The notes under the pieces: model-generated
The model's database searches: none
Told to the model about the DNA's origin: nothing
Seen by the model: only the letters and a program-made list of their open reading frames with translations
Made by a program: the position numbers and the translations under genes
Part shown: in pieces, positions 4,122 to 41,636 of the stretch
Layout: every line of letters begins with the position of its first letter
Numbering within the stretch: the first letter of the stretch is position 1
From: a virus
Taxonomy: Duplodnaviria > Heunggongvirae > Uroviricota > Caudoviricetes
Strand: one strand, 5' to 3'
Virus record (IMG/VR): IMGVR_UViG_2908567220_000009
Length of the DNA stretch: 41,636 bases

Positions 4122-4397
4122 GTGGCTTCTGTTTCTATCAGCTGTCCCTCCTGTTCAGCTACTGACGGGGTGGTGCGTAACGGCAAAAGCACCGCCGGAC
4201 ATCAGCGCTATCTCTGCTCTCACTGCCGTAAAACATGGCAACTGCAGTTCACTTACACCGCTTCTCAACCCGGTACGCACCAGAAAATCATTGATATGGC
4301 CATGAATGGCGTTGGATGCCGGGCAACTGCCCGCATTATGGGCGTTGGCCTCAACACGATTTTACGTCACTTAAAAAACTCAGGCCGCAGCCGGTAA
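4122..4397 (+). CDS. insA: IS1 InsA (transposition inhibitor / N-terminal part of InsAB')
   Basis: 91-aa [25 protein letters not shown]... with GTG start; the A6C frameshift motif TTAAAAAAC lies near 4371-4379. Confidence 0.95.
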
Positions 4398-4819
4398 CCT
4401 CGCGCATACAGCCGGGCAGTGACGTCATCGTCTGCGCGGAAATGGACGAACAGTGGGGCTATGTCGGGGCTAAATCGCGCCAGCGCTGGCTGTTTTACGC
4501 GTATGACAGTCTCCGGAAGACGGTTGTTGCGCACGTATTCGGTGAACGCACTATGGCGACGCTGGGGCGTCTTATGAGCCTGCTGTCACCCTTTGACGTG
4601 GTGATATGGATGACGGATGGCTGGCCGCTGTATGAATCCCGCCTGAAGGGAAAGCTGCACGTAATCAGCAAGCGATATACGCAGCGAATTGAGCGGCATA
4701 ACCTGAATCTGAGGCAGCACCTGGCACGGCTGGGACGGAAGTCGCTGTCGTTCTCAAAATCGGTGGAGCTGCATGACAAAGTCATCGGGCATTATCTGAA
4801 CATAAAACACTATCAATAA
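4316..4819 (+). CDS. insB: IS1 InsB frame (expressed as InsAB' transposase by programmed -1 frameshift)
   Basis: 167-aa ORF in the -1 frame relative to insA, C-terminus ...[15 protein letters not shown]. Confidence 0.9.
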
Positions 4820-7846: not shown

Positions 7847-8059
7847 ATGTCTAACAAAATGACTGGTTTAGTGAAATGGTTTAACCCTGAAAAAGGTTTT
7901 GGTTTCATCACGCCGAAAGATGGTAGCAAAGATGTGTTTGTGCATTTCTCAGCTATTCAGAGCAACGATTTCAAAACGTTAACTGAGAATCAGGAAGTCG
8001 AATTTGGTATTGAGAACGGACCTAAAGGCCCTGCAGCTGTTCATGTAGTGGCACTTTGA
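7847..8059 (+). CDS. cspI: cold-shock protein, CspA family (CspI-like, 70 aa)
   Basis: [45 protein letters not shown]...; long AT-rich 5' leader (7484-7846) as in cspA-family genes; position after Rz as in Qin. Confidence 0.85.
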
Positions 8060-8733: not shown

Positions 8734-8907
8734 ATGAACATTGAAGAGTTAAAAACAAAAACAGAAGCAGATATTTCTGAATATATAACAAAAAAAATCA
8801 TTGAGCTTAAGAAAAAGACCGGGAAAGAAGTTACCAGTATCCAGTTTACTGCACGGGAAAAAATGACTGGTCTTGAAAGCTATGATATCAAGATTGATTT
8901 AATCTAG
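8734..8907 (+). CDS. gnsB: GnsA/GnsB family protein
   Basis: 57 aa MNIEELKTKTEADISEYITKKIIELKKKTGKEVTSIQFTAREKMTGLESYDIKIDLI, closely resembling what I recall of GnsA/GnsB. Confidence 0.8.
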   Translation: MNIEELKTKTEADISEYITKKIIELKKKTGKEVTSIQFTAREKMTGLESYDIKIDLI

Positions 8908-9500: not shown

Positions 9501-9511
9501 TGGATTTGCCC

Positions 9512-9826
9512 CTATATTTCCAGACATCTGTTATCACTTAACCCATTACAAGCCCGCTGCCGCAGATATTCCCGTGGCGAGCGATAACCCAGCGCACTAT
9601 GCGGATGCCATTCGTTATAATGCTCGAACGCCTCTGCAAGGTTCTTTGCTGCCGTTAACCCGTCTGGTTTGGGCATGATACTGATGTAGTCACGCTTTAT
9701 CGTTTTCACGAAGCTCTCTGCTATTCCGTTACTCTCCGGACTCCGCACCGCCGTGTTCTTCGGTTCAAGTCCCAACATCCGGGCGAACTGGCGTGTTTCA
9801 TTAGCCCGGTAGCATGAACCATTATC
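9512..9826 (-). pseudogene. insD: IS2 insD, C-terminal fragment (split by IS66-family insertion)
   Basis: Encodes ...[34 protein letters not shown]...[29 protein letters not shown], continuous with the N-terminal fragment at 12527-13129 once the insertion and one TSD copy are removed. Confidence 0.9.
9819..9826. repeat. 8-bp target-site duplication (CCATTATC) of the IS66-family element, left copy
   Basis: CCATTATC directly flanks both ends of the inserted element (9819-9826 and 12531-12538). Confidence 0.8.
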
Positions 9827-9911
9827 GTAACCGTCTCATTTAAACCGTCTTTCGCCTCCCTTTCCTGTTTCCGATACTAATGTCCATTTTCGCAGTAAAG
9901 GGACATTTAAG

Positions 9912-10562
9912 ATGAATGCACGAAAAGCGGTACTGGCAGACAATCCGGAATTGATCCTGCGTGTGCTACAGCTGAGATTTGACGAGTCACTGTCGTACCC
10001 GCGCATTTCTGCGCAGACCGGTGTCAGCAAAACCGCCATTTTTTCTCTGGTGAGGCGATTTCACCAGGTATTCACTGACTGGCCTCTTTCCGGTGAATAT
10101 TCCTGCGGGCAACTGGCCCGGGCTCTTTTCCCGGGGCGATACCCTTCAGCCCCGACCGTGACTCAGCCTGTGAAAGCAGAGAAACCCCGCCGGAACCGAT
10201 TTTCACCGGAGTTTAAATGGAGACTGGTTCAGCAAACTCTTTTACCCGGTGCCTGTGTCGCACAAATAGCTCGAGAGAATGGAATTAACGATAACCTGCT
10301 CTTTAACTGGCGGCATCTCTGGCGTAACGGTGGCCTGCAACCGCCCGGCGAACATGAAACATCGCTACTTCCCGTGACGTTAACTCCGGAGCCGGATAAT
10401 AAAATCCCGGCACCAGTGCAGATACCTGAACAGATAAATACACTGCCAGACAGTCTGTGCTGCGAGCTGGTTCTGCCGGCCGGAACTCTCAGGCTGAAAG
10501 GTGAACTGACACCGGCGTTATTACAGACACTTATCCGCGAAATGAAAGGGAGCAGCCACTGA
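9912..10562 (+). CDS. IS66-family accessory protein (orfA/TnpA)
   Basis: 216-aa ORF, first of three co-oriented ORFs inside the element; its stop overlaps the orfB start (ATGA). Confidence 0.75.
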   Translation: MNARKAVLADNPELILRVLQLRFDESLSYPRISAQTGVSKTAIFSLVRRFHQVFTDWPLSGEYSCGQLARALFPGRYPSAPTVTQPVKAEKPRRNRFSPEFKWRLVQQTLLPGACVAQIARENGINDNLLFNWRHLWRNGGLQPPGEHETSLLPVTLTPEPDNKIPAPVQIPEQINTLPDSLCCELVLPAGTLRLKGELTPALLQTLIREMKGSSH

Positions 10563-10909
10563 TGATATCTCTCCCTGCCGGTTCGCGTATCTGGCTGGTT
10601 GCCGGTATCACCGATATGCGAAATGGCTTTAACGGCCTGGCCTCAAAAGTTCAGAACGTCCTGAAGGATGACCCGTTCTCCGGGCATCTGTTCATCTTCC
10701 GCGGACGCCGGGGTGACCAGATAAAAGTGCTGTGGGCTGACAGTGACGGACTGTGCCTCTTCACCAAACGCCTGGAGCGGGGCCGCTTCGTCTGGCCGGT
10801 CACCCGCGATGGAAAGGTTCACCTTACTCCGGCTCAGTTGTCCATGCTTCTCGAAGGCATCGACTGGAAGCACCCGAAACGAACGGAACGCGCTGGCATC
10901 CGCATATAA
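10562..10909 (+). CDS. IS66-family Orf2 (TnpB-like)
   Basis: 115 aa MISLPAGSRIWLVAGITDMRNGFNGLASKV...; size and the conserved N-terminal motif fit IS66 Orf2. Confidence 0.85.
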   Translation: MISLPAGSRIWLVAGITDMRNGFNGLASKVQNVLKDDPFSGHLFIFRGRRGDQIKVLWADSDGLCLFTKRLERGRFVWPVTRDGKVHLTPAQLSMLLEGIDWKHPKRTERAGIRI

Positions 10910-10928
10910 CCCGTTGTAAAGTGAGGAT

Positions 10929-12500
10929 ATGGACACCTCACTTGCTCATGAGAATGCCCGCCTGCGGGCACTGTTGCAGACGCAACAGGACACCATCCGC
11001 CAGATGGCGAAATACAACCGCCTGCTCTCACAGCGGGTGGCGGCTTATGCTTCCGAAATCAACCGGCTGAAGGCGCTGGTTGCGAAACTGCAGCGCATGC
11101 AGTTCGGTAAAAGCTCAGAAAAACTTCGCGCTAAAACCGAACGGCAGATACAGGAAGCCCAGGAGCGAATCAGCGCACTTCAGGAAGAAATGGCGGAAAC
11201 GCTGGATGAGCAATATGACCCGGTACTGCCATCCGCCCTGCGCCAGTCTTCAGCCCGTAAGCCGTTACCGGCCTCACTTCCCCGTGAAACCCGGGTCATC
11301 CGGCCGGAAGAGGAATGCTGCCCGGCCTGTGGTGGTGACCTCAGTCCTCTGGGGTGTGATGTGTCAGAGCAACTGGAGCTTATCAGCAGCGCTTTTAAGG
11401 TTATCGAAACACAACGTCCGAAACTGGCCTGTTGCCGGTGCGACCATATCGTGCAGGCACCAGTACCTTCAAAACCCATTGCACGCAGTTATGCCGGAGC
11501 GGGGCTTCTGGCTCATATCGTCACCGGGAAGTATGCAGACCATCTGCCGTTATACCGCCAGTCAGAAATATACCTTCGTCAGGGCGTGGAACTGAGCCGC
11601 GCCACGCTGGGGCGCTGGACCGGTGCCGTTGCTGAACTGCTGGAGCCGCTGTATGACGTGCTGCGCCAGTATGTGCTGATGCCCGGTAAAGTCCATGCGG
11701 ATGATATCCCCGTTCCGGTCCAGGAGCCGGGCAGTGGTAAAACAAGAACTGCCCGGCTGTGGGTCTATGTCCGTGATGACCGTAACGCCGGTTCACAGAT
11801 GCCCCCGGCGGTCTGGTTCGCGTACAGCCCGGACCGGAAAGGTATCCATCCACAGAATCACCTGGCCGGTTACAGCGGTGTGCTTCAGGCAGATGCTTAC
11901 GGTGGTTACCGGGCGTTATACGAATCCGGCAGAATAACGGAAGCCGCGTGTATGGCCCATGCCCGGAGAAAAATCCACGATGTGCATGCAAGAGTGCCAA
12001 CCGACATCACCACGGAAGCCCTGCAGCGTATCGGTGAACTGTATGTCATCGAGGCAGAAGTCCGGGGATGTTCAGCAGAACAGCGTCTGGCAGCAAGAAA
12101 AGCCAGAGCGGCTCCACTGATGCAGTCACTGTATGACTGGATACAGGAACAGATGAAAACACTGTCGCGTCACTCGGATACGGCAAAAGCGTTCGCATAC
12201 CTGCTGAAACAGTGGGAGGCCCTGAACGTGTACTGCAGTAATGGCTGGGTGGAAATCGACAACAACATCGCAGAGAACGCCTTACGGGGAGTGGCCGTAG
12301 GCCGGAAAAACTGGCTCTTCGCGGGTTCCGACAGCGGTGGCGAACATGCGGCGGTGTTGTACTCGCTGATCGGCACATGCCGTCTGAACAATGTGGAACC
12401 AGAAAAATGGCTGCGTTACGTCATTGAGCATATCCAGGATTGGCCGGCAAACCGGGTACGCGATCTGTTGCCCTGGAAAGTTGATCTGACCTCTCAGTAA
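10929..12500 (+). CDS. IS66-family transposase (orfC/TnpC)
   Basis: 523 aa with an N-terminal leucine-zipper-like region, CxxC...CxxC zinc-finger motifs (CPACGG...CCRCDH) and a DDE-type core. Confidence 0.9.
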
Positions 12501-12526
12501 ATATCAATACGGTTCTGGCGAGCCGC

Positions 12527-13129
12527 TTACCCATTATCCGTCAGCCACTCCACTGGAGACGACGGAAGATCGTTGCCGAAGCGGCGTTCCACCGCTCCCA
12601 GCATGACGTCCTGTACTGTTTCACTGTTGAAGCCGCCGGTAGTGACCGCCCAGTGCAGTGCCTCACGATCACAGCAGTCCAGCGCGAACGTGACACGCAG
12701 TCTCTCTCCGTTATCACAGCAGAACTCGAACCCGTCAGAGCACCATCGCTGATTGCTTTCTTTCACGGCCACTCTGCCTGTATGTGCCCGTTTCGATGGC
12801 GGTACAGCAGGTTTTCGCTCAAGCAACAGCGCATTCTGGCGCATGATCCGGTAAACACGTTTGGCATTGATCGCAGGCATACCATCAAGTTCTGCCTGTC
12901 TGCGAAGCAGCGCCCATACCCGACGATAACCATACGTGGGCAGCTCTCCGATAACATGGTGTATACGGAGAAGCACATCCGTATCATCAGTGTGACGACT
13001 GCGGCGGCCATCCATCCAGTCATCGGTTCGTCTGAGAATGACGTGCAACTGCGCACGCGACACCCGGAGACAACGGCTGACTAAGCTTACTCCCCATCCC
13101 CGGGCAATAAGGGCGCGTGCGCTATCCAC
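12527..13129 (-). pseudogene. insD: IS2 insD, N-terminal fragment
   Basis: [34 protein letters not shown]...VEWLTDNG, ending in a stop created at the IS66 junction. Confidence 0.9.
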
Positions 13130-13452
13130 TTTTTTGCCCGTCCATATTCAACGGCTTCTTTGAGGAGTTCATTTTCCATCGTTTTCTTGCCGAGCAGGCG
13201 CTGGAGTTCTTTAATCTGCTTCATGGCGGCAGCAAGTTCAGAGGCAGGAACAACCTGTTCTCCGGCGGCGACAGCAGTAAGACTTCCTTCCTGGTATTGC
13301 TTACGCCAGAGAAATAACTGGCTGGCTGCTACACCATGTTGCCGGGCAACGAGGGAGACCGTCATCCCCGGTTCAAAGCTCTGCTGAACAATTGCGATCT
13401 TTTCCTGTGTGGTACGCCGTCTGCGTTTCTCCGGCCCTAAGACATCAATCAT
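13087..13452 (-). CDS. insC: IS2 InsC (OrfA, HTH protein)
   Basis: 121 aa from [41 protein letters not shown]...; the ORF track extends it upstream by an alternative start. Confidence 0.9.
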
Positions 13453-13543
13453 CTGTTCTCCAATGACTAGTCTAAAAACTAGTATTAAGACTATCACTTA
13501 AATAAGTGATATTGGTTGTCTGGAGATTCAGGGGGCCAGTCTA

Positions 13544-13548
13544 CAATT
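13544..13548. repeat. 5-bp target-site duplication (CAATT) of IS2, right copy
   Basis: Identical to 9496-9500. Confidence 0.8.
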
Positions 13549-13823
13549 CAACTACAGCAATGCCTCGTATTTAGGTGAATTTACAATATCGTCCAGTTCG
13601 GATGCCGGCTGCATTTCTGAAGATAAGGCATTTCGGTTCGCGTATTTTCCCCTCATGCTCGTCAGTCCTGCGCGTAGTAAGAAACAGGACACTCACACTA
13701 ATTTGTGTGGGCATGCTGTGATGTCCTTCTGAATTATCCCCATGCCATTATGTAAAGCTCTGTTTCAGATGCTCGTCACGGTTGTCAGGCTGTCGGGTCC
13801 TCCCAGTGGGGGTCCCTGCCACG

Positions 13824-13835
13824 GGGCGGGAGCGT
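13824..13835 (+). other. candidate cosN (cohesive-end site) of the prophage
   Basis: ACG-GGGCGGGAGCGT-CGCGG versus lambda ACG-GGGCGGCGACCT-CGCGG: identical flanks and 8/12 core matches. It lies 195 bp upstream of the small-terminase start; in lambda cosN is 190 bp upstream of Nu1. Confidence 0.55.
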
Positions 13836-14018
13836 CGCGGAAAAAGGCTAGTTTTTGCATTTCCATGGCGGCGGCAGCATGTTTGGTAATTTATTGATAA
13901 TTAAAGTTATTTATCTTTTCACCTGTACAATATTTTTTTCTCCCTGTCATTAGACCAGTTTACAATTAATTGAAATATATAAATAAACATGATTTTCACC
14001 TGCCAGATGGAGTTGCTT

Positions 14019-14546
14019 ATGTCAAATGTGAGCGGGATCGGTGATGCTTATTACTGGAGTGTTTTTAAAATCGCTGAGGCCTTTGGGCTTCACCGGGACA
14101 CAGTAAAAAAACGGCTTCTCGCGGCCAACACTCCTGTGGCTGCGACTGTCAGGGGGAACCCCGTTTACGCCCTGCAGCATGTCGGGCCAGCCCTGTTTAG
14201 TGTGAAGCATGAGGCAGCAGACTCTGTTCATGATCCATCCCGTATGGAGCCGAAAGAGAGAAAGGACTGGTACCAGTCTGAAAATGAAAGGATCAAGCTG
14301 GAAAAGGAGCAGCGAAAACTCATCCCCGTTGATGAAGTAGTCATCGTCTATTCGTCCATGAGAAAGGCTGTCGTCCAGGTTCTGGAGACAATTCCGGATG
14401 TTCTTGAACGCGATTGCGCCCTGACTCCTCAGGCCGTCGGCGTTGTACAGCAGGCAATTGATGACCTGCGATACACTCTTCAGGAAAAATCCTACGAGGC
14501 TTGTGCTGCTGAATTAATTCCTGATGAGGAAGGAGAGAGTCTCTAG
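14019..14546 (+). CDS. nohA: terminase small subunit (Nu1 homolog)
   Basis: MSNVSGIGDAYYWSVFKIAEAFGLHRDTVKKRLLAANTPVA... has an N-terminal HTH and sits directly before the terminase large subunit. Matches what I recall of K-12 NohA/NohQ. Confidence 0.85.
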   Translation: MSNVSGIGDAYYWSVFKIAEAFGLHRDTVKKRLLAANTPVAATVRGNPVYALQHVGPALFSVKHEAADSVHDPSRMEPKERKDWYQSENERIKLEKEQRKLIPVDEVVIVYSSMRKAVVQVLETIPDVLERDCALTPQAVGVVQQAIDDLRYTLQEKSYEACAAELIPDEEGESL

Positions 14547-14554
14547 GAGGAATA

Positions 14555-16653
14555 ATGGGTTTTTCATCAGCCCGAAATTTGGGAAGGGACATATCGGCAG
14601 GATTTTCCCCACCACGTCGCATGCCGATTTCGGAGGCTGTTAAAAAATTCATGCGTGTTCCCAAGGGGGCTGGTAACTCGGTGCCAGGGATCCTGAACTG
14701 ACACCCTACATCATTGAGCCCATGAACTGCCTGGCATCGCGTGAATACGATGCGGTGATTTTTGTTGGTCCTGCGCGAACAGGGAAGACCATTGGTCTGA
14801 TCGATGGATGGATTGTCTATACCATCGTTTGCGATCCTTCGGACATGCTCGTTGTGCAGATGACCGAAGATAAGGCCCGCGAGCATTCTAAAAAGCGCCT
14901 CGACAGAACGTTCAGAAGCAGTGCGGCGGTAAAGAAAAGAATGAGTCCACGTCGTAACGACAATAATGTCCATGATAAGACGTTCAGGGATGGCTCGTTC
15001 CTTAAAATTGGTTGGCCCTCGGTCAACATTATGTCGTCGTCGGATTACCGGTTTGTCGCCTTAACCGATTACGACCGTTTTCCGGAGAATATCGACAGCG
15101 AGGGTGATGGTTTCTCCCTGGCCTCAAAACGTACCACCACATTTATGTCCGCCGGGATGACTCTGGTGGAGAGCTCGCCGGGACGTGACATCTGCGACAG
15201 CAAATGGCGACGTAAGTCGCCTCATGAAGCGCCACCGACGACTGGTATTCTTTCCCTTTACAATCGTGGTGACCGCCGCCGCTGGTACTGGTCATGTCCG
15301 CACTGCGGTGAATATTTTCAGCCAGCCATGGATGCCATGACCGGCTACCGTAATGAACCGGATCCCTTTAAAGCCAGTGAGGCGGCGTATCTACTTTGCC
15401 CGCACTGCAGCGGCATTATCACTGCGGAGAAAAAGCGTGAGCTCAATAGTGCAGGAGTCTGGTTGCGTGAAGGTCAGGTCATTGATCGTAACGGCAACGT
15501 TTCCGGTGAACCGCGCCGCTCCCGTATCGCCAGTTTCTGGATGGAAGGGCCAGCTGCTGCGTATCAGACCTGGGCGCAACTGGTTTACAAATTACTGACT
15601 GCAGAACAGGAGTATGAAGCGACAGGAAGCGAAGAAACACTCAGGGCGGTTATCAACACCGACTGGGGATTGCCTTATCTTCCTCGTGCCAGCATGGAGC
15701 AACGAAAAAGTGAACTGCTTGAGCAGCGGGCAGAGCCAGTTCCTTCCCGCAGTGTGCCGGATGGCATTAATTTCCTTGTGGCGACAGTGGATGTGCAGGC
15801 GGGACGTCATCGCCGTTTTGTGGTTCAGGTAACGGGCTATGGCAGTCGTGGCGAACGCTGGATTATTGATCGTTACAACATCACGCAGTCATTGCGCAGT
15901 GACTGCGACGGGGAGAGCCAGCGAATTGATCCGGCCAGCTATCCGGAAGACTGGGATGTCCTGCTGACGGATGTTTTTCATAAAAGCTGGCCGCTGGCCT
16001 CCGATCCTTCTCAACAAATGCGACTGATGGCAATGGCGGTGGACTCCGGCGGTGAAGACGGGGTCACTGATAATGCCTATAAATTCTGGCGTCGTTGCCG
16101 TCGTGATGGCCTTGGTAAACGTATTTACCTGTTTAAGGGTGACAGCATCCGGCGCGCAAAACTGATCAGCCGTACATTCCCTGATAACACCGGACGAACG
16201 GGCCGCCGGGCGCAGGCCGCAGGTGATGTGCCGCTCTGGCTTCTTCAGACGGATGCCCTGAAAGACCGGGTGAATAACGCGTTATGGCGTGACTCGCCAG
16301 GTCCAGGCTATGTGCATTTCCCTGACTGGCTGGGGAGCTGGTTTTACGACGAACTGACGTATGAAGAGCGAAGCAGTGACGGGAAATGGAGTAAGCCGGG
16401 TCGCGGTGCCAACGAAGCTTTTGACCTGATGGTGTATGCCGAGGCTCTGGTCATTCTGCATGGATACGAAAAGATCCGCTGGCCGGATGCACCGGAGTGG
16501 GCGAGCCGGGAAACCTGGCTGGAGTGTGTCCAGGACAGTACCGAACCGTCATCCTCACCGGAACCGGTATCCACGCCTGTTAAAAAACAAAAACGGAAGA
16601 AAACAGTAACTGACGATGTTAACCCCTGGCTGACTTCCGGAGGATGGTTATGA
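14555..16653 (+). pseudogene. terminase large subunit (lambda gpA family) interrupted by a frameshift near 14681-14700
   Basis: ATG at 14555 with a strong RBS (AGGAGG) encodes 48 aa ending at a TGA (14699-14701). The remaining 643-aa frame (annotated from 14722, open from 14677) is displaced by one nucleotide. Homology to lambda gpA is continuous across the break (VPKGAGNS / RDPELTPYIIEPMNCLAS versus lambda LPKESAYQEGRWETLPFQRAIMNAMGS). Confidence 0.8.
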
Positions 16654-38687: not shown

Positions 38688-38963
38688 GTGGCTTCTGTTT
38701 CTATCAGCTGTCCCTCCTGTTCAGCTACTGACGGGGTGGTGCGTAACGGCAAAAGCACCGCCGGACATCAGCGCTATCTCTGCTCTCACTGCCGTAAAAC
38801 ATGGCAACTGCAGTTCACTTACACCGCTTCTCAACCCGGTACGCACCAGAAAATCATTGATATGGCCATGAATGGCGTTGGATGCCGGGCAACTGCCCGC
38901 ATTATGGGCGTTGGCCTCAACACGATTTTACGTCACTTAAAAAACTCAGGCCGCAGTCGGTAA
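38688..38963 (+). CDS. insA: IS1 InsA
   Basis: Identical protein to the copy A InsA. Confidence 0.95.
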
Positions 38964-39385
38964 CCTCGCGCATACAGCCGGGCAGTGACGTCATCGTCTG
39001 CGCGGAAATGGACGAACAGTGGGGCTATGTCGGGGCTAAATCGCGCCAGCGCTGGCTGTTTTACGCGTATGACAGTCTCCGGAAGACGGTTGTTGCGCAC
39101 GTATTCGGTGAACGCACTATGGCGACGCTGGGGCGTCTTATGAGCCTGCTGTCACCCTTTGACGTGGTGATATGGATGACGGATGGCTGGCCGCTGTATG
39201 AATCCCGCCTGAAGGGAAAGCTGCACGTAATCAGCAAGCGATATACGCAGCGAATTGAGCGGCATAACCTGAATCTGAGGCAGCACCTGGCACGGCTGGG
39301 ACGGAAGTCGCTGTCGTTTTCAAAATCGGTGGAGCTGCATGACAAAGTCATCGGGCATTATCTGAACATAAAACACTATCAATAA
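38882..39385 (+). CDS. insB: IS1 InsB frame
   Basis: 167 aa; one substitution relative to copy A (S versus P at residue 26). Confidence 0.9.
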
Positions 39386-41244: not shown

Positions 41245-41636
41245 GTAATGACTCCAACTTATTGATAGTGTTTTATGTTCAGATAATGCCCGATGACTTT
41301 GTCATGCAGCTCCACCGATTTTGAGAACGACAGCGACTTCCGTCCCAGCCGTGCCAGGTGCTGCCTCAGATTCAGGTTATGCCGCTCAATTCGCTGCGTA
41401 TATCGCTTGCTGATTACGTGCAGCTTTCCCTTCAGGCGGGATTCATACAGCGGCCAGCCATCCGTCATCCATATCACCACGTCAAAGGGTGACAGCAGGC
41501 TCATAAGACGCCCCAGCGTCGCCATAGTGCGTTCACCGAATACGTGCGCAACAACCGTCTTCCGGAGACTGTCATACGCGTAAAACAGCCAGCGCTGGCG
41601 CGATTTAGCCCCGACATAGCCCCACTGTTCGTCCAT
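41245..41636 (-). mobile_element. IS1, copy C (inverted, partial: continues beyond window end)
   Basis: Starts with the reverse complement of the IS1 right end (GGTAATGACTCCAACTTATTGATAGTG) and contains the insB 3' part on the minus strand. Confidence 0.9.
41259..41636 (-). CDS. insB: IS1 InsB frame (partial, runs off window)
   Basis: 125-aa C-terminal part [26 protein letters not shown]...HYLNIKHYQ. Confidence 0.85.

Follow-up and report, generated by a model that had tools for sequence, protein, structure and literature searches.

Genetic organisation of the terminase locus

The window, i.e. the whole stretch of DNA analysed here (41,636 nucleotides), carries a lambdoid prophage in which a small terminase gene, terS, and a large terminase gene, terL, are preceded by a region containing a series of conserved motifs and, further to the left, by a nest of insertion sequences. 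The coordinates of all features are collected in Table 1.

Table 1 Features of the terminase locus and of its left flank. Cos coordinates are counted with the cosN 12-mer's initial base as +1.
Feature	Window position	Cos coordinate	Strand	Sequence or assignment
IS2 interrupted by an IS66-family element	9501-13543		-	IS2 TnpA, split IS2 TnpB, IS66 TnpA/TnpB/transposase (NCBIfam)
cosQ heptamer	13795-13801		+	GGGTCCT; same as the lambda heptamer, a packaging-termination signal in lambda
cosN	13821-13840		+	ACGGGGCGGGAGCGTCGCGG, read as ACG-GGGCGGGAGCGT-CGCGG; 12-mer GGGCGGGAGCGT at 13824-13835
Proximal conserved block	13836-13866	+13 to +43	+	CGCGGAAAAAGGCTAGTTTTTGCATTTCCAT; consensus CGCGGRAAACGGCTAGTTTTTGNATTTTCAT
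Triplet-repeat element	13867-13883	+44 to +60	+	GGCGGCGGCAGCATGTT; candidate primary TerS site
IHF core consensus	13887-13899	+64 to +76	-	TATCAATAAATTA (WATCAANNNNTTR); exact match, I1-like putative bend site
Direct repeat, copy 1	13916-13925	+93 to +102	+	TTTTCACCTG; candidate R2-like TerS site
Conserved block inside cosB	13941-13975		+	CCCTGTCATTAGACCAGTTTACAATTAATTGAAAT
Direct repeat, copy 2	13993-14002	+170 to +179	+	TTTTCACCTG; candidate R1-like TerS site
terS	14019-14546		+	small terminase, 175 aa; DUF1441 (PF07278, Pfam); ATG at 14019, GGAG at 14010-14013
terL	14555-16653		+	GpA-type large terminase; GpA_ATPase and GpA_nuclease (Pfam); frame resumes in ORF 14722-16653

Within the nest, the IS66-family element (TnpA/TnpB/transposase) occupies positions 9912-12500 and splits the IS2 TnpB gene, and the composite as a whole is a clean insertion relative to the Qin-like prophage of E. 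coli FT130. Colinearity with the latter also places the genes to the left of the composite, which are ydfR, lysozyme, Rz, cspI (7847-8059), ymcF, ynfN, gnsB (8734-8907) and a ybcW-like ORF. The IS2 end (..GGGGGCCAGTCTA) lies 280 bp before position 13824, the distance given in the original prediction, and 252 bp to the left of cosQ; the composite therefore lies outside the functional cos, which the insertion missed by about 250 bp.

Two further observations bear on the state of the prophage. An IS1 transposase gene at 4316-4819, one of two such ORFs in the window (the other is at 38882-39385), is found where the immunity/replication/Q region is expected, with the exonuclease gene on one side and the lysis genes on the other. 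Since IS1 stands in place of this region, the early region appears to be deleted. In addition, terL lacks one T at about position 14686 compared to phage cdtI (CCATGGGAT changed to CCAGGGAT), which leads to a stop after about 48 codons. The terL segment was compared with the 764 complete E. coli genomes that contain it, and even the best matches displayed a one-base gap at 99.2% identity (122 bases versus 121 in the query). The exact deletion is thus found in none of the 764, and represents either a mutation private to this strain or an error of sequencing. With a frameshifted terL and IS1 replacing the early region, the prophage is defective, and its cos, although intact, could therefore be cut only in trans. 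Thus, the cos site is almost certainly not used in this prophage.

The two terminase subunits have different affinities to those of lambda. TerL belongs to the same GpA family, whereas TerS matches DUF1441 and not Phage_Nu1, the family (PF07471) matched by lambda Nu1. PDB sequence searches with TerS returned nothing meaningful, no NCBIfam model matched it, and an hhalign comparison with Nu1 gave a weak probability of 9%, confined to the helix-turn-helix. TerS nevertheless has an N-terminal winged helix-turn-helix domain resembling the DNA-binding domains of small terminases and, by analogy, probably binds DNA in the same manner as Nu1. As TerS is not a Nu1 homologue by sequence, any mechanism proposed for cosB rests on this analogy.

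A lambda-like cosN and cosQ upstream of terS

A pattern derived from lambda, ACGGGGCGGNNNNNNCGCGG, occurs a single time in the window, at cosN, and was matched in none of 100 dinucleotide-preserving shuffles. We aligned both lambda ends, i.e. the junction ...GGGTCCTttccggtgatccgacaggttACG-GGGCGGCGACCT-CGCGGG, with the window sequence ...GGGTCCTcccagtgggggtccctgccACG-GGGCGGGAGCGT-CGCGGA. The ACG and CGCGG flanks are identical and 8 of the 12 core bases are shared, both as originally predicted, the mismatches being at bp 7, 8, 9 and 11. All differences thus fall within bp 7-12, while the left half of cosN (13824-13829, GGGCGG) is the same as in lambda, and so are the CG dinucleotides at both nick positions (ACG-GGG... 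and ...CGT-CGCGG). The predicted nicks are between 13823 and 13824 on the top strand and between 13835 and 13836 on the bottom strand, which would generate a 12-nt 5’ cohesive end spanning 13824-13835. The terS ATG follows the initial 12-mer base at a distance of 195 bp, compared to 190 bp in lambda (Nu1 start at 191), again in agreement with the original prediction.

This distribution of differences is that of natural cosN variation, which spares cosQ, the CG flanks and the left half and concentrates in bp 7-12 (Feiss et al. 2015, PMC4669245): relative to lambda, the changes are located at bp 9 and 12 in the cosN of N15 and at bp 8, 9 and 11 in that of Gifsy-1 (PMC4669245). Mutations in the right half are mild because cosB anchors TerL on the right side (PMC4669245). 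Feiss et al. define a lambda-like cos site by 12-base 5’ cohesive ends and significant identity to lambda (PMC4669245), and by this definition the site in the window, with its predicted 12-nt end, is a lambda-like cos.

CosQ, an element absent from the original prediction, is separated from the top-strand nick by a spacer of 22 nt (23 nt in lambda). We examined its conservation, together with that of cosN, in 80 loci retrieved by a scan of IMG/VR viral contigs, all encoding a TerS 99-100% identical to that of the window; a scan of genome contigs for the TerS locus yielded two loci. The 80 loci are nearly identical to one another, which makes them useful for population-level conservation and not for resolving cosB subsites. 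CosQ is invariant in all of them (in register in 77, shifted by 1 nt in 3) and the 12-mer GGGCGGGAGCGT is present in 79, while the spacer between cosQ and cosN is polymorphic, with 17 variants. Sequences to the left of cosQ are highly variable, those from cosQ through terS nearly invariant, and the boundary between the two is sharp and located at cosQ. Judged from these alignments, this boundary is the footprint expected for a cis site linked to its own terminase. Across lambda and the related phages described below, the conserved core consists of GGGTCCT, the 22/23-nt spacer and CG-GGGCGG......-CG.

A variant of the cosQ region was also noted. In L015, L016, L017, L022, L104, L106, L108 and L110 (L numbers designate loci in our comparison), AAGGTACTCC replaces the lambda cosQ sequence GGGTCCTCC at the same distance from cosN. 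AAGGTACTCC is thus a second natural form of the cosQ region in many DUF1441-type cos sites, while the cited literature describes cosQ as invariant.

Conserved elements between cosN and terS

Because TerS is of the DUF1441 type and not Nu1, the lambda-like sequence is limited to cosQ and cosN, and cosB is not that of lambda. In lambda, cosQ and cosN are the parts of cos that interact with TerL. To describe cosB, we compared the DNA upstream of terS in relatives whose TerS is 84, 75, 69, 68, 65, 63, 61, 57 and 56% identical to that of the window, anchoring the alignment on the right cosN flank. All but one of the ten aligned sequences have their terS ATG at +196 to +198.

Immediately to the right of cosN, the consensus CGCGGRAAACGGCTAGTTTTTGNATTTTCAT persists in relatives with a TerS 56-84% identical to that of the window and in further DUF1441 phages, Cr-LKS3 among them. 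This proximal block is possibly a TerL footprint, or a spacer setting the register between cosN and cosB. It is followed by a run of triplets at the position occupied by R3 in lambda and in N15, where R3 spans bp 48-59 (PMC4669245). The triplet runs group with TerS subtype: GGCGGCAGCATGT is found in the window and in L104 (TerS 84% identical), CATCATCAGCAGGT in three other sequences, GACACCACCA in four and CAGCAGCAGGT in PSTCR8lys, CATCATCATCA being another form carried by relatives. Given its position and this grouping, the triplet element is where TerS would be expected to bind.

The IHF consensus next to it is found as an exact match at the same coordinate, +64, in L104, L106 and PSTCR8lys. 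The window contains four more exact matches to this consensus. Two of them, at 4811 and 39377, adjoin an IS1 transposase gene each, and another, at 41255 and likewise near IS1 sequence, has the 13-mer TATCAATAAGTTG in common with them. IS1 ends contain IHF sites.

Further to the right, the 10-nt sequence TTTTCACCTG is present as an exact direct repeat with its copies 77 bp apart. At the position of the first copy, a CACCT or AGGTG core is found at +97 to +99 in L105, Trabulsiella and PSTCR8lys; at that of the second, it is found at +174 to +176 in L105, L110, Trabulsiella and PSTCR8lys, while L103 keeps TCACCTGCCAG and L104 TCGCCTGCCAG. CACCT/AGGTG matches at +188 to +190 were also considered as TerS sites and rejected, being Shine-Dalgarno sequences. 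The conserved block located between the two copies is nearly identical in L104 and partly kept in L103. As no sigma-70-like promoter (and no intrinsic terminator) was found in 13544-14100, we dropped a promoter reading of this block.

A search of 13836-14019 for IHF and terminase-binding sites, suggested along with the original prediction, has thus produced an exact IHF consensus and candidate terminase-binding repeats. The order of these putative elements, site-IHF-site-site, suggests a parallel with the R3-I1-R2-R1 arrangement of lambda. In this reading, TerS and IHF would bind the window cosB at these elements, and the candidate repeats would be its R-like sites.

Genome ends of related phages

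The GenBank records of phages cdtI (AB285204) and Tritos (OV696610) both begin at the base equivalent to 13824, and the Tritos record terminates with ...CCTGCCACG. Their TerS proteins are 100% identical to that of the window, GGGCGGGAGCGT and cosQ are identical, and cosB is about 97-98% identical, the window lacking one A in cosB (13902) and showing a few substitutions. The window differs further by the IS2::IS66 composite and by its frameshifted terL. Tritos virions have been detected and a plaque was isolated once (PMC9928086), indicating that the cdtI/Tritos packaging module is active. The Tritos paper does not give the method of end determination (PMC9928086), and the origins of both records may have been set by analogy with lambda.

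Three other phages add to this picture. In LLS, a cohesive site of 12 nt is annotated at the corresponding position, its ends being inferred according to the LLS paper. The record of Hafnia phage yong2 is cut exactly at both edges of a 12-mer, i.e. it is split at cosN. In the Cylindrospermopsis phage Cr-LKS3, which encodes a DUF1441 TerS 38% identical to that of the window and a GpA TerL, 5’ cohesive ends were determined experimentally, with an overhang of 9 nt (PMC9303873). In an alignment with the window, the left end of Cr-LKS3, CG-GGGCTCGCG-CGCGGAAGTCGGCAGTTTTT, falls on the nick CG-GGGC, and its junction, ...GGGTCCCtcc...gacgCG-GGGCTCGCG-CGCGGAAGTCGGCAGTTTTTCGG, agrees both at this left nick and over the block that follows cosN on the right. 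The record ends of five phages (cdtI, Tritos, LLS, yong2 and Cr-LKS3) thus coincide with cosN, and we found no phage of this terminase type with ends assigned elsewhere; the Ayreon and Ahp2 papers give no mapped ends.

A homologous cosN is present at an equal distance from a DUF1441 terS in PhiR40_1, Fels-1, PSTCR8lys, LLS, yong2 and L104-L110. The 12-mer of PhiR40_1 is the same as in the window; the other forms are GGGCGGGAGCGG in mEp460, GGGCGGCGCGCT in mEp213 and LLS, GGGCGGCAGCGG in Fels-1 and GGGCGGCGTGCT in PSTCR8lys. The lambdoid phages with a DUF1441 TerS (mEp213/LLS, mEp460, PhiR40_1, Fels-1, yong2 and Cr-LKS3) share with the window a cosQ-like element, the GGG at the left end of cosN, the CGCGGRAAACGGCTAGTTTTT block, a triplet element at about +44 to +60 and a terS start at about +130 to +196, whereas their TerS is only 33-42% identical to that of the window. 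Their triplet element and cosN right half differ from those of the window, which probably points to different packaging specificities.

Several loci depart from the common arrangement. The flanks ACG and CGCGG are separated by 11 nt in VT1-Sakai (L010, AP000400; GGGCGGGCGGG) and by 14 nt in Gifsy-2 (L015; GGTGGCTTCGGGCT), which may reflect different overhang lengths or damaged cos sites. The linear record of mEp460_4F5 (L006/L007, LR595868) begins 5 nt before the expected nick, and its cosN, GGGCGGGAGCGCGG, is 3 nt shorter than that of mEp460, GGGCGGGAGCGGCGCGG, which looks like an assembly artefact at the cohesive ends. L103, a metagenomic relative (JGI 3300025728 Ga0207655_1000690, locus 1-700), encodes a TerS 89% identical to that of the window and has neither cosQ nor cosN within 700 nt upstream of terS. 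Its homology to the window starts only at 13946 (ATTAGACCAGTT...), and its cos is either elsewhere or lost by recombination.

A probable cis-acting packaging site

The direct observations are the sequence matches and conservation found for cosQ and cosN, the position of both beside terS and terL and their agreement with the record ends of related phages. Together, they lead us to conclude with high confidence that positions 13795-14018 form the complete cis-acting packaging site (cosQ, cosN and cosB) of a lambdoid prophage with a module of the cdtI/Tritos type, i.e. a DUF1441 TerS combined with a GpA-type TerL.

We considered whether the site is a cos whose cohesive end is not the 12-mer named above, with a different stagger (9-11 nt, for example) or a shift of a base or two. 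The wider family has no fixed overhang length: Cr-LKS3, which has the same terminase types, has a 9-nt overhang, and the flank spacings in VT1-Sakai and Gifsy-2 differ too. Moreover, the literature yielded no direct end determination for GGGCGGGAGCGT and no experiment on a phage with exactly this 12-mer, the sole match of a full-text search being an unrelated mammalian promoter paper. Against this, the conserved CG flanks of the window are exactly 12 nt apart, as in lambda, with a left half identical to lambda, the breaks in the yong2 record fall exactly on both edges of a 12-mer, and the 12-nt length is kept in 79 of the 80 IMG/VR loci. A different stagger or register is thus improbable, and we retain the 12-nt end.

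Two readings would deny that the region is a cos at all. According to one, a G+C-rich stretch of non-coding spacer resembles lambda cosN by coincidence and the true signal is elsewhere, inside terS for example, as in pac phages. The core is indeed short and differs from lambda at 4 of 12 bases, the Pfam family of TerS is not that of Nu1, and L103 is without the motif. However, the absence of any match in the shuffles, the co-occurrence of cosQ at the right spacing, a TerL of the GpA family (lambda-type, 5’-cos) and the five phage records that end here all argue against coincidence, and the conservation of the motif, with a constant spacing to terS, across many divergent DUF1441/GpA phages effectively refutes it; we give this reading next to no credence. 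According to the other, the stretch encodes a small protein (ORF 13742-13897, 51 aa) and is not a cis-acting site, and a “hypothetical protein” is annotated over the region in several deposited phage genomes. Yet sequences upstream of cosQ vary by indels and by replacement of whole segments, conservation begins abruptly at cosQ and not at a boundary of the ORF, what is conserved is a set of short motifs with fixed spacing to terS and not codons, and such an ORF would run across the two ends of the linear genome. The chance that the stretch is a coding sequence is accordingly minute. The cos reading is therefore the one developed below.

Compared to lambda cos, the site has the same cosQ heptamer, cosN left half and CG flanks at both nicks, a partial two-fold symmetry, a TerL of the GpA family and, as candidates in the window, an IHF site flanked by the first two TerS sites. 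It differs by four of the six bases in cosN's right half, by a cosB unrelated in sequence and by a DUF1441 TerS in place of Phage_Nu1. The description of the cos as lambda-like in the original prediction consequently applies to the cosQ and cosN sequences and not to cosB.

By analogy with lambda, packaging from such a site in a functional relative would be expected to proceed as follows. TerS would bind cosB via its N-terminal winged helix-turn-helix, probably assisted by an IHF bend at +64 to +76. TerL would thereby be positioned to nick at the two predicted sites, generating GGGCGGGAGCGT as a 12-nt 5’ end, and DNA would then be packaged rightward from terS. Packaging would stop at the next cos, where cosQ (GGGTCCT) would be needed for terminal nicking. 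The right end of the genome would thus consist of the lysis genes, cspI, ynfN, gnsB and the IS2::IS66 nest.

Locating the packaging origin orients the virion map, with terS, terL and the head and tail genes on the left arm, and the lysis genes, the csp/gns morons and the IS nest on the right arm. The original prediction had also called this cos the packaging origin and had placed the csp/gns genes and IS2/IS66 at the right end of the virion genome. This holds as a map, given the ends of the relatives and the placement of cspI and gnsB, and fails as a description of a particle, the prophage being defective. The cis site has survived the loss of self-packaging, and a resident or infecting phage of the same TerS specificity, such as a co-resident phage of the Tritos/cdtI type, could still mobilise the locus or cut it in trans.

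The same cos variant is already the origin of two deposited phage genomes, cdtI and Tritos, so that the finding is correct and not new; the comparative layout of cosB in DUF1441 phages is the only, mildly, novel material here, and we found no description of it in the literature. Tentatively, and with somewhat less than even confidence, we propose that DUF1441 small terminases represent an uncharacterised set of cosB specificities built on a lambda-like plan (a site, an IHF bend, a site in opposite orientation and a third site), in which the primary element would be the triplet run at +44 to +60, co-varying with TerS subtype. In this series, the run is GGCGGCGGCAGCA in the window and CATCATCATCA, CACCACCA or CAGCAGCAG in relatives. 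If this is true, the window displays the cdtI/Tritos specificity of the DUF1441 series. The comparative layout offers a modest lead for packaging specificity in the numerous enterobacterial and Stx-type phages with DUF1441 small terminases.

Two of the loci compared show peculiarities of their own. L021 (JAGZPX010000007.1) encodes a 99% identical E. coli-type phage TerS in a contig labelled as a Veillonella parvula MAG, a label that is probably due to a binning error. In Trabulsiella guamensis (L022, 645-790), a 78-bp unit of cosB is duplicated in tandem (84% identical), and each of the copies includes a CACC-rich site, an IHF-like site and an inverted GAGGTGGG site.
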